Source: a virus. Taken from it: a stretch of 35,923 bases of DNA. Each line of letters opens with the position of its first letter. Positions within the stretch are counted from its first letter, which is position 1. Of this stretch, positions 4,246 to 21,441 are shown one piece after another. The position numbers and the translations under genes are program-made. The notes beneath the pieces were generated by a model. It saw nothing but the letters and a program-made list of their open reading frames with translations. It had not been told where the DNA came from and searched no databases. The stretch covers positions 1 through 35,923 of IMG/VR virus record IMGVR_UViG_3300019487_000019. One strand, written 5' to 3'.

Positions 4246-4560
4246 ATGGGTATCGTCTACACGAAGCTGCCCAAGGGCGCGTACAAGCAACCGAAGCGGG
4301 ACACCTCGTTCCGCCCGTACAAGCCCGACGTCAACCCCCTCCTCGCCGCTCACCAGGCTCAGATGGCTACGATGCCTAGCAAAGACAATGGTGGCGTCGC
4401 GTTGGTCGCCCAGCCGAAGTCGTACGAAGACCCGGAGCTCGCCAAGCGCGAACTCGAAGCACGCACCCGAGTTCATACTGTTGCTCCCATCTGCAATAAG
4501 GGAGGCTATCAGCTGATCACCGCTGAAGAAGACCTGAAGACAGTGGGGCGCAAGGTATGA
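4246..4560 (+). CDS. Phage hypothetical protein
   Basis: ORF track; tight operon packing; C-terminal VAPICNKGGYQLI. Confidence 0.75.
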   Translation: MGIVYTKLPKGAYKQPKRDTSFRPYKPDVNPLLAAHQAQMATMPSKDNGGVALVAQPKSYEDPELAKRELEARTRVHTVAPICNKGGYQLITAEEDLKTVGRKV

Positions 4561-18503: not shown

Positions 18504-18576
18504 GGGGGTGTAGCACAATTGGGGGTGCAACTGCCTTGCACGCAGTAGGTTGCAGGTTCGAGCCCTGTCACCTCCA
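18504..18576 (+). tRNA. tRNA-Ala(UGC), no encoded CCA
   Basis: Cloverleaf: GGGGGTG/CACCTCC with G3:U70, D stem GCAC/GTGC, anticodon arm ACTGC-CTTGCAC-GCAGT, T arm GCAGG-TTCGAGC-CCTGT. Confidence 0.92.
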
Positions 18577-18583
18577 CGGTTTA

Positions 18584-18688
18584 CGGAGATTAGCGCAGCC
18601 TGGTAGCGCATCTGCTTTGGTAAATGCCTTCGTAAGAGGACATTTTCCGAGCAGAGGGTCGCAGGTTCGAATCCTGCATCTCCGACCA
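18584..18688 (+). tRNA. tRNA-Pro(UGG) with a 28-nt insertion/intron (18621-18648) in the anticodon loop
   Basis: CGGAGAT/ATCTCCG-A-CCA, D arm GCGC-AGCCTGGTA-GCGC, TCTGC-TTTGG[28 nt]GA-GCAGA, T arm GCAGG-TTCGAAT-CCTGC. Confidence 0.88.
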
Positions 18689-19710: not shown

Positions 19711-20286
19711 ATGGAATTTACCCTCCGTGCTGCGCACAAGCTTGTTGAGAAGATCAACGGCCACCTCAAGACAATCGAAGTTGAACCGATTGTCAACGTC
19801 AACGCGTTTGAAGTTGCCGACGCACAGAAGCTATTTTCGGAACGTCTCGCTCGCTTTAATGCCAATAGGGAGCGTGCTCTGAATCTAATCGAAATTCGTG
19901 CGGTCCTTCGCAACGAGATTGGCGAACAAAACGCTAAGGAAATCGATGGTCTGATCGGCCACCGCAAGGCTGCCATCGAGCGTCTCACCCTGTTCAATCG
20001 CATCCTGCAATCCGCAAAACAGGAAGGCGAGATTTCATCTCCGGCGGCCCTCGAGAAGAAGGTCAAGGCACAGACAGACTCGAAAACACAGACGCTATAT
20101 GGACGTGAGATGATCTCGTTCAACGTTGTCAGTAAAGAAGTTCGCGACAATCTCGAGAGCGAGGTTGCTGTGATGAAACGCTTGATCGAGAGAACCGAAG
20201 ATCAACTCCTCCATGAGAATATCCAGCGCAAGATTGTTCTTGACGCCGCTCGTGTTGGAGTTCTTCGTCAAGAACTGTTGGTCTGA
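19711..20286 (+). CDS. Long alpha-helical/coiled-coil protein (191 aa), possibly DIP1984/DUF6847-like (unverified)
   Basis: AAGGAG RBS; heptad-like helices; M.FTLR.A..L start and L...N....I.L end; no catalytic motif seen. Confidence 0.8.
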   Translation: MEFTLRAAHKLVEKINGHLKTIEVEPIVNVNAFEVADAQKLFSERLARFNANRERALNLIEIRAVLRNEIGEQNAKEIDGLIGHRKAAIERLTLFNRILQSAKQEGEISSPAALEKKVKAQTDSKTQTLYGREMISFNVVSKEVRDNLESEVAVMKRLIERTEDQLLHENIQRKIVLDAARVGVLRQELLV

Positions 20287-20520
20287 GGAGGCAGAGCGGG
20301 AGGAAAGACAGAGCCACCTGGAATATACCTACGGGCGTATCCAGGCCGTGGCATATTGCCACATCTACAGGACAGGTCCATTGTTTGTGAGCAATTACTA
20401 TTACCCATCTTGTTGGTTGTTGGTTGTAGCTCACGAAAAGACCACTAATTGTCGATTGTTGGGCGCATGCGCCGACTGTTTGATTGTCATGGCTTCTGTT
20501 GATCTTTCCACTCTCCTCCA
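20287..20520 (+). ncRNA. Candidate structured ncRNA (~235 nt) with a closing helix and UUGU repeats
   Basis: 5'/3' ends pair (GGAGG/CCTCC, AGAG/CTCT, GGAAAGA/TCTTTCC, CAGA/TCTG, GCCA/TGGC); internal hairpins include a cUACGg loop; about ten (U/C)UGU motifs. Confidence 0.7.
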
Positions 20521-20544
20521 CTATTATTTGGCATGGAGGTCTCC

Positions 20545-21441
20545 ATGTCGCTCGTAGATACAATGTTAGATGAAATCCGCAAACGCATAAAAGCCGCCCC
20601 AGCCGGCACGCCAGCGGGTGTGCCGGGAGGGAAATTAGTTGCTCGGTCTGCCCGAGCGCTTGCTGATCACTTCGCCGGTTCTGAGGAGCCAGAAGTTGAC
20701 GACAATCCCCCGTTTCATGAATTTGACTTAGAAACTCTTCTTGCTGATCTTCATCCAGACAAACCCGAACTTGCTCAAAAGATTCAGTCCGTTTTGTCGC
20801 GCTTAGAACTCTATACGGGTCTCTCGTTTTCCCTAACAAATGGACCTTATCTTGCTGGTGGTGCTTTGCGGCAAGCTATTGAAGGTGAATTCTGCAAAAC
20901 TGACTACGATATTTTCTTTAACAGTTATGCTCAGTACGAAGCGTTTTCACAAAAACTAATGTACTTCGAACCGCAAGATCAGACGTTTGTTTCAAAACAC
21001 CCCGACCTAACCGTCGAAACCCAGACAATGTTTACAGAGAACTATAAAATGGGTGAGGAGGGAACCGATCTTATTCAATTGATTCGCGATCGATGGTATC
21101 ACAAGAACGCAAAAAGTCTAATTTCAGAATTCGATTTTACATGCTGCCAGCTTGCTACGGATGGCACAACGATCGTCGTTGGTGCACACGCAATTAATGA
21201 TATTTGCGATCGACGGCTTGTGTTTAATGCGTTTCATTCTCCCGTGAATTCAGTTGTTCGAGTGGGGAAATATAACCGATATGGGTATGTTCTAACACAC
21301 GAAGAGTCAAAGAAATTCCTCCAAAATGTTGTAGAGAATCCTGACACATTGGAGAATAGTGGATACGTTGTTGATGGAATGAGTGCAGCCGTTTCTTCGG
21401 TAAGCGCACACTTCGGCGCAGTTAAGTGTGCCAGCCTCTGA
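20545..21441 (+). CDS. Nucleotidyltransferase (poly(A) polymerase/CCA-adding head-domain-like)
   Basis: YLAGGALR, catalytic DYDIFF, IQLI, FDFTCCQ, R..KY..YGY; GGAGG RBS. Confidence 0.75.
   Translation: MSLVDTMLDEIRKRIKAAPAGTPAGVPGGKLVARSARALADHFAGSEEPEVDDNPPFHEFDLETLLADLHPDKPELAQKIQSVLSRLELYTGLSFSLTNGPYLAGGALRQAIEGEFCKTDYDIFFNSYAQYEAFSQKLMYFEPQDQTFVSKHPDLTVETQTMFTENYKMGEEGTDLIQLIRDRWYHKNAKSLISEFDFTCCQLATDGTTIVVGAHAINDICDRRLVFNAFHSPVNSVVRVGKYNRYGYVLTHEESKKFLQNVVENPDTLENSGYVVDGMSAAVSSVSAHFGAVKCASL

Follow-up and report, generated by a model that had tools for sequence, protein, structure and literature searches.

We describe a structured RNA that is encoded directly behind the gene of a 191-amino-acid all-helical protein in a jumbo phage, and that has been inherited together with this protein in related phages. 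The window, i.e. the whole stretch of DNA that was analysed (35,923 nucleotides, nt), is the first 35.9 kb of the 183-kb IMG/VR virus record IMGVR_UViG_3300019487_000019, which is 58% complete. The same phage is present in an NCBI assembly as a 355.6-kb contig and is therefore a jumbo phage. The RNA lies on the plus strand at 20287–20519, in a gap of 258 nt that separates the protein gene from a nucleotidyltransferase gene, the start of the latter being placed at 20545 as called in the NCBI copy. We are confident that the element belongs to a genuine family of structured RNAs that is undescribed and has no match in Rfam 15. As judged from sequence comparison, the family is one of 220–260-nt structured RNAs of jumbo phages (Dolichocephalovirinae and their metagenomic relatives), and its members are most likely protein-binding RNAs.

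Conservation of the RNA with the upstream protein

The comparison covers 20 distinct loci, all of them reached through homologues of the 191-amino-acid protein. The metagenomic part consists of the window and of the loci L002, L003, L085, L087, L089, L090, L091, L123, L124, L125, L129, L132, L134 and L136; the cultured phages are CcrColossus and CcrPW, which infect Caulobacter, and Domovoi, Kikimora and Bambus, which infect Brevundimonas. The original prediction, made from the letters of the window alone, proposed a discrete structured RNA at this place and expected homologues of the protein to be followed by a similar structured gap. This is what is seen in 20 of the 20 loci: a non-coding stretch is found 3' of the protein gene, 0–300 nt downstream of it, and each copy is closed from end to end by a helix of 16–46 base pairs (bp). 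The gap follows the gene directly in most loci. One small open reading frame (ORF) stands between the two in L089 and L090, and in the Caulobacter-clade phages there is an extra strong hairpin between the stop codon and the element. The linkage of RNA and protein persists at about 25% protein identity and with changing neighbours. In fact the upstream protein is the sole constant neighbour of the RNA, and L003 shares nothing else with the 36-kb window. In the GenBank records of the cultured phages the corresponding gaps, 285–315 nt long, carry no annotation; the one of CcrColossus is at 201299–201582.

The helices are supported by covariation. An Infernal model (R1) was built from three copies; it matches the window at 20284–20530 and finds six further copies with E-values from 3e-21 to 5e-4. 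The model misses the divergent copies, i.e. those of L089, L123–125, L132–136 and the Caulobacter clade, which were recognised from their position, fold and motifs. In an alignment of nine copies fitted to R1, 87.6% of the cells pair, as compared to 36–49% when the partners are slid by 1–3 columns. Both sides have changed in 31 of the 43 pairs, the covariation score is 0.397 versus at most 0.118, and none of 500 shuffles reaches the real alignment in any measure. Independently of the model, the five copies from Caulobacter and Brevundimonas phages were aligned with plain MAFFT and folded with RNAalifold, which returned the closing helix with GC-to-AU exchanges. In other words, covariation is present in the nine-copy as well as in the five-copy alignment. 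The stems of one internal hairpin (P4b, see below) have a different sequence in each phage and keep their complementarity. We note that a MAFFT alignment of the 3' domain put the stems wrongly, and no model was made from it.

Two frames that are open in the window, the ORF 20213–20557 and an antisense ORF of 236 amino acids, are closed in the homologues; the former overlaps the RNA and had been named as a possible conserved protein, which it is not. The indels between the window and L002 measure 1–3 nt. Rfam 15 finds tRNAs only, both in the window and in 18 homologous loci, and a permissive scan of 20100–20700 gave one 17-bit chance hit (E = 5.3), so the statement that the RNA matches no named family holds.

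Nucleotide and pattern searches were less productive. Blastn with the locus against GenBank phages gave no match, and neither did IMG/VR pattern scans with a single-protein pattern and with the RNA motif. A motif scan of the metagenome collection gave 80 hits, all of which were chance matches to the seeded motif as judged by nhmmer. When IMG/VR was scanned with a second RNA pattern, 30 hits came back, the L085/L086 phage being the only real one.

One locus holds the remains of a second module. At 4384–4601 of L085 all that is left of a second protein gene is its first 18 codons, which are joined directly to the 3' half of an RNA of the L090 type; a tRNA gene stands before this fusion and, as in L090, a small zinc-finger-like ORF after it. 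This decayed module suggests recombination between phage lineages at the locus.

Architecture of the RNA

In the window the segment 20287–20519 folds with an energy of –103.3 kcal/mol (z = –4.8), and none of 200 dinucleotide shuffles folds as well. The z-scores of other copies are –6.95 (L002), –3.5 (L003) and –4.4 (CcrColossus). The fold of the minus strand is weaker (z = –3.85), and the plus strand is also favoured because conserved G-U pairs are frequent. The original prediction described a helix that joins the ends of the gap (20287–20316 with 20490–20519) and four hairpins inside it; all five are part of the minimum-free-energy fold, and every coordinate proved to be right when checked on the sequence. 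The protein gene and the parts of the RNA are as follows.

19711–20286, plus strand: gene of the 191-amino-acid all-helical protein, with its stop codon at 20284–20286
20287–20519, plus strand: whole structured RNA, bounded by the outermost bases of the closing helix P1 (fold and Infernal model R1)
20287–20316, plus strand: 5' strand of P1, purine-rich, directly at the upstream stop codon (fold; helices 1–3 covary)
20317–20345, plus strand: P2 hairpin with a UACG loop (helices 4–5; 6 of 9 pairs change on both sides)
20348–20362, plus strand: P3 hairpin, variable among homologues and absent in L003
20375–20443, plus strand: P4 (GGUC with GACC), which encloses P4b (helix 8; 7 of 7 pairs change on both sides)
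20384–20392 with 20429–20437, plus strand: P4b stem, with a loop of about 36 nt
20410–20427, plus strand: UUG cluster 1, at the 3' end of the P4b loop (TTGTTGG × 2.6, Tandem Repeats Finder)
20447–20489, plus strand: UUG cluster 2, in the P4–P1 junction, split by the small P5 hairpin
20462–20473, plus strand: P5 hairpin (minimum-free-energy fold)
20490–20519, plus strand: 3' strand of P1, pyrimidine-rich (fold and covariation)

UUG triplets

The distribution of short motifs along the RNA is uneven. The only invariant columns of a 15-copy alignment are TTG, and they are located in the loop of P4b and in the junction that follows P4. Within the clusters the spacing of the triplets is often 7 nt. 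It is conspicuous that the triplets are confined to one strand: the segment 20284–20530 of the window has 8 TTGT on the plus strand versus 0 on the minus strand, and 15 TTG versus 1. The same tendency is seen in all 16 copies in which both strands were counted, with 10–15 UUG per copy on the plus strand versus 0–6 on the minus strand, and altogether 17 of the 20 copies have 10–15 UUG on the plus strand. The longest chains of triplets spaced by 6–8 nt, six in a row, are found in CcrColossus and CcrPW. The Brevundimonas phages have CUGUG-type repeats at the corresponding place instead of UUG. GGA, the core of CsrA sites, is frequent in some copies, does not occur in the clusters of the window and is not conserved.

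The upstream protein

A word-indexed search with the 191-amino-acid protein gave two homologues only (54% and 41% identity). A profile search among 1.8 billion cluster representatives (50% clustering) gave 794 family members at E ≤ 0.001; the best 150 of these are nearly all 185–200 amino acids long and match from end to end. No Pfam family matches the 191-amino-acid protein, a PDB sequence search was uninformative, and the only PHROG match is the unannotated phrog_25230, which is matched by 11 of 80 members. The structure predicted by AlphaFold2 from an 80-sequence alignment has a pLDDT (predicted local distance difference test) value of 93.8. It consists of a short N-terminal strand, a 67-residue helix that is folded back on more helices, and a C-terminal strand. 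Fold searches of the PDB gave only generic helical-hairpin and BAR-like matches, the top one being the uncharacterised 3kdq (Z = 10.2).

Full-length matches in a viral structure library are uncharacterised proteins of CcrColossus, Erwinia phage pEa_SNUABM_47, Vibrio phage Vp_R1 and two giant viruses. The CcrColossus homologue is gp272, which the profile search recovers with E = 2.6e-30, and gp272 as a tblastn query leads to CcrPW and to seven jumbo phages of Brevundimonas pondensis (312–357 kb). Tblastn against GenBank phages with the window protein or with P0010 found nothing; the named phages were reached only via the structure search and the profile search of CcrColossus.

Neighbouring genes and the promoter in the 3' strand

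On the 5' side of the protein gene the window has a QueD-like gene, a Macro-domain gene and two tRNAs (18504–18685); the genes on the 3' side of the gap are the nucleotidyltransferase, a DUF3310-like protein and a FolE2-type GTP cyclohydrolase. The second tRNA, 102 nt long (18584–18685), is called by Rfam and not by ARAGORN. In most metagenomic loci (window, L085, L087, L089, L090, L123, L125 and L132) tRNA genes lie 0.1–1.5 kb upstream of the module. A gene order is kept in L002, L087, L090, L123–L125, L129, L132, L134 and L136, i.e. a Rap1a-like gene, two small ORFs, the 190-amino-acid gene, the RNA, an optional insert, an AAA_28 gene and a FolE2-type GTP cyclohydrolase. The slot after the RNA resembles a variable island, the occupants of which include the Gad2-like enzyme, small ORFs and a 240-amino-acid ORF. 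Two features of the window lie at or behind the 3' end of the RNA.

20499–20527, plus strand: sigma-70-like promoter for the downstream gene (TTGATC, 17 nt, TATTAT), whose spacer is the 3' strand of P1
20545–21441, plus strand: Gad2-like nucleotidyltransferase gene, a neighbour outside the conserved module

The enzyme matches PHROG nucleotidyltransferase families and keeps the G-G...D-x-D motif. PF26128 is listed among precomputed hits for the window gene and for its L002 homologue, and a scan of the local Pfam copy was empty. The original prediction saw in this enzyme a partner of the RNA that might modify its ends, and this part did not survive the comparison: the nucleotidyltransferase is the next gene in only 4 of the 20 loci (window, L002, L085 and L091), and a search at E ≤ 0.001 detected no homologue in four complete genomes that have the protein and the RNA (CcrColossus, CcrPW, Domovoi and Kikimora). 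In 5 loci the RNA is followed by the gene of an AAA_28 P-loop protein, elsewhere by small or unassigned ORFs, and in L136 the next gene is convergent. As the gene that follows differs between loci, and in L136 runs towards the element, this is not a 5' leader.

A promoter with the consensus TTGAnC, 16–17 nt, TAnnAT is found at the homologous site in 11 of 16 copies. In L085 (3297–3334), L091 (1282–1319) and L132 (2777–2814) the –10 hexamer precedes the ATG by 6 nt and a ribosome-binding site is lacking; leaderless messages would therefore fit these three loci. The bases of the promoter spacer covary with partners that lie about 220 nt further upstream, which means that the RNA has to run through the spacer. 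The Caulobacter phages, which are GC-rich, give only a weak promoter reading and still keep a CUCUA(C/U) tail after P1. This type of tail stands directly after P1 (20520–20527 in the window), is not a –10 element in the Caulobacter phages and may mark the 3' end or a processing site of the RNA.

The ribosome-binding site and the start codon of the nucleotidyltransferase are inside a local hairpin in the window (20530–20550), and in L002 the ribosome-binding site is in a comparable hairpin just before the ATG (1058–1085). This suggests a possible translational control of an enzyme class that is toxic when expressed.

Comparison with known RNAs

Regularly spaced triplets are known from Bacillus, where the leaders bound by TRAP carry GAG/UAG repeats, and the hut mRNA has two sets of UAG-N4 repeats that are bound by hexameric HutP. 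The phage RNA is similar to these in that short triplets stand at regular spacing and form two separate clusters on one RNA, with a period of 7 nt as in the HutP sites. However, the triplet is UUG (or CUGUG) and not (G/U)AG, the RNA is a closed multi-helix body rather than the leader of a regulated operon (see L136), and the protein encoded next to it is an all-helical hairpin, unlike TRAP or HutP. With CsrB and RsmZ it shares many copies of a short motif in the loops and single strands of a stable non-coding RNA. It differs from them in that GGA is not conserved, in that Rfam gives no match, and in that it is phage-encoded and tied to one phage gene. A CsrA sponge was dropped as a candidate, there being no conserved GGA.

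The likeness to YrlA (RF02553), the partner of Ro60, is that of a non-coding RNA that ends in a long stem, in phages that also encode Ro60: TROVE (Ro60) proteins are found in CcrColossus, CcrPW, Domovoi and Kikimora. The locus itself has no YrlA hit even at E ≤ 10 and no tRNA-like module. Two or three YrlA-like hits are located beside the Ro60 genes of CcrColossus (near 107–109 kb) and Kikimora, with at most 42 bits versus a gathering score of 69, and none is listed beside the Domovoi Ro60 gene. Y-RNA-like genes have been noted in CcrColossus (PMC12135203). The Brevundimonas phages probably also encode Ro60 with Y-like RNAs. In CcrColossus the TROVE gene (about 107.6–108.4 kb) and our RNA (about 201.3 kb) are about 93 kb apart; in the window phage a TROVE gene was not found in the 183-kb record, which is only 58% complete. 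An identity with YrlA or Y RNA was rejected, as the RNA does not match RF02553 and is not adjacent to Ro60.

Stable phage RNAs that accompany tRNA clusters include the species 1 and 2 RNAs of T4, and GOLLD and ROOL occur near prophage tRNAs. The present element is likewise an orphan structured phage RNA, near tRNA genes in most metagenomic loci. In contrast to them it has another size and fold, is not matched by sequence or by any model, and goes with one particular protein gene.

Further candidates were rejected on single points. A type III antitoxin RNA (ToxI-like) would have tandem units of 30–40 nt, whereas the sole tandem repeat here is a 7-nt unit × 2.6, and no toxin family is found among the neighbours. 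RNase P RNA was considered on account of a GGAGGAAAG-like string near the 5' end, which is not conserved in the homologues. ARAGORN finds no tmRNA, and a riboswitch for downstream FolE2 genes is at variance with the changing downstream gene.

Proposed function and alternative explanations

We propose that the RNA is a platform for protein binding. It would be made by read-through from the protein gene, and the closing helix would either stabilise it or be the place where it is excised. The triplets, with their even spacing, would serve as docking sites for several subunits of an RNA-binding protein, and the co-inherited upstream protein would be the most likely binder; gene and RNA would then be a two-part ribonucleoprotein module. 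The nucleotidyltransferase would be a mere neighbour, driven by the promoter that is embedded in the 3' end of the RNA. We hold the platform reading with the upstream protein as partner tentatively and consider it slightly less probable than its negation. The heptad pattern has weight because it is conserved in the homologues, and not from the window alone.

Several observations speak against this proposal. The protein family has a median isoelectric point of 6.2 and is not consistently basic, and the PDB fold searches show no recognisable RNA-binding fold in it. In the window alone the pattern TTG-N4-TTG-N4-TTG is not significant (1 match versus 0.73 expected, equalled by 50 of 100 shuffles). 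Many copies keep the heptad spacing imperfectly (most have a chain length of 1–4), and UUG triplets are scarce in those of the Brevundimonas phages. Part of the conservation at the 3' end is probably that of a DNA-level promoter sequence rather than of the RNA. Transcript ends, abundance and transcription itself are inferred. Finally, the sampling was led by the protein, i.e. only the probability of the RNA given the protein was measured, and shared ancestry or synteny could explain much of the linkage.

The best surviving alternative, which we regard as unlikely, is a cis-acting structured 3' untranslated region. Such an element would end, protect or process the upstream message, by means of the closing helix with a U-rich tail or of an RNase III-type site, and would insulate the downstream unit. 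It would account for the start of the element at, or a few bases from, the preceding stop codon, for the U- or AU-rich tract that follows P1 in many copies, for the overlap of the sigma-70-like promoter with the 3' strand (11 of 16), and for the downstream gene, which usually begins 10–40 nt after P1. However, terminators and processing sites are simple hairpins, while here 230 nt, five helices and invariant single-stranded triplets are kept at about 25% protein identity. A terminator scan found none here, and the Caulobacter clade already has a separate strong hairpin between the stop codon and the element.

Less probable still is a decoy or sponge for a host RNA-binding protein or defence factor, comparable to CsrB/RsmZ or to the antitoxin-RNA mimics of phages. 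Short single-stranded motifs repeated on a stable scaffold would suit this role, and the locus is situated amid tRNA and anti-defence-type genes (Macro-domain, Gad2-like, Acb2/Tad1-like hairpin domain and Rap1a). The motif also differs by host clade (UUG versus CUGUG), as would be expected if a host factor were being tracked. On the other hand, no host protein is known to read UUG at a 7-nt spacing, the GGA core of CsrA sites is neither conserved nor present in the two clusters of the window, and the strict linkage to the ~190-amino-acid gene would be left unexplained.

A DNA-level regulatory region, in which the TTG repeats would be sites for a transcription factor (possibly the upstream protein) acting at the promoter 20499–20527 and the RNA structure would be secondary, is very improbable. 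It is true that the repeats lie 10–100 bp upstream of a conserved –35/–10 pair, and that the –35 region resembles the repeat unit. Nevertheless, compensatory changes connect bases separated by about 220 nt and are also seen in four stems inside the element, the repeats are strictly confined to one strand and form part of a hairpin loop, a spacing of 7 nt does not fit the helical repeat of DNA, and the element is kept in L136, where no downstream gene needs a promoter. Equally improbable, and largely refuted as a general feature, is an RNA substrate end-modified by the downstream nucleotidyltransferase: the gene of the enzyme, which keeps the G-G...D-x-D motif, lies beside the RNA in the window and in L002, L085 and L091, but it is missing from 16 of the 20 neighbourhoods and undetected in the four complete genomes with protein and RNA, and it has its own promoter.

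Returning to the protein platform, its fullest form would be a new phage ribonucleoprotein in which ~190-amino-acid helical-hairpin subunits are arranged on the heptad-spaced UUG triplets of a scaffold RNA encoded behind their own gene, with a conserved function in the jumbo-phage clade of Caulobacterales and in uncultured relatives. We consider this combined claim doubtful, and more so than the platform reading taken by itself.

Significance

Jumbo phages have many orphan genes and few described non-coding RNAs. The RNA family described here has strong comparative support and is tied to a protein family of 794 cluster representatives. Even if it were only an elaborate 3' untranslated region, it would be a useful annotation for the 285–315-nt gaps that are blank in GenBank. 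The phages can be cultured on Caulobacter crescentus and Brevundimonas pondensis, which makes both the RNA and the protein open to direct deletion, tagging and assay. If the ribonucleoprotein is real, it would represent a new mode of RNA recognition, UUG at a 7-nt spacing, and would give a function to a widespread phage protein.

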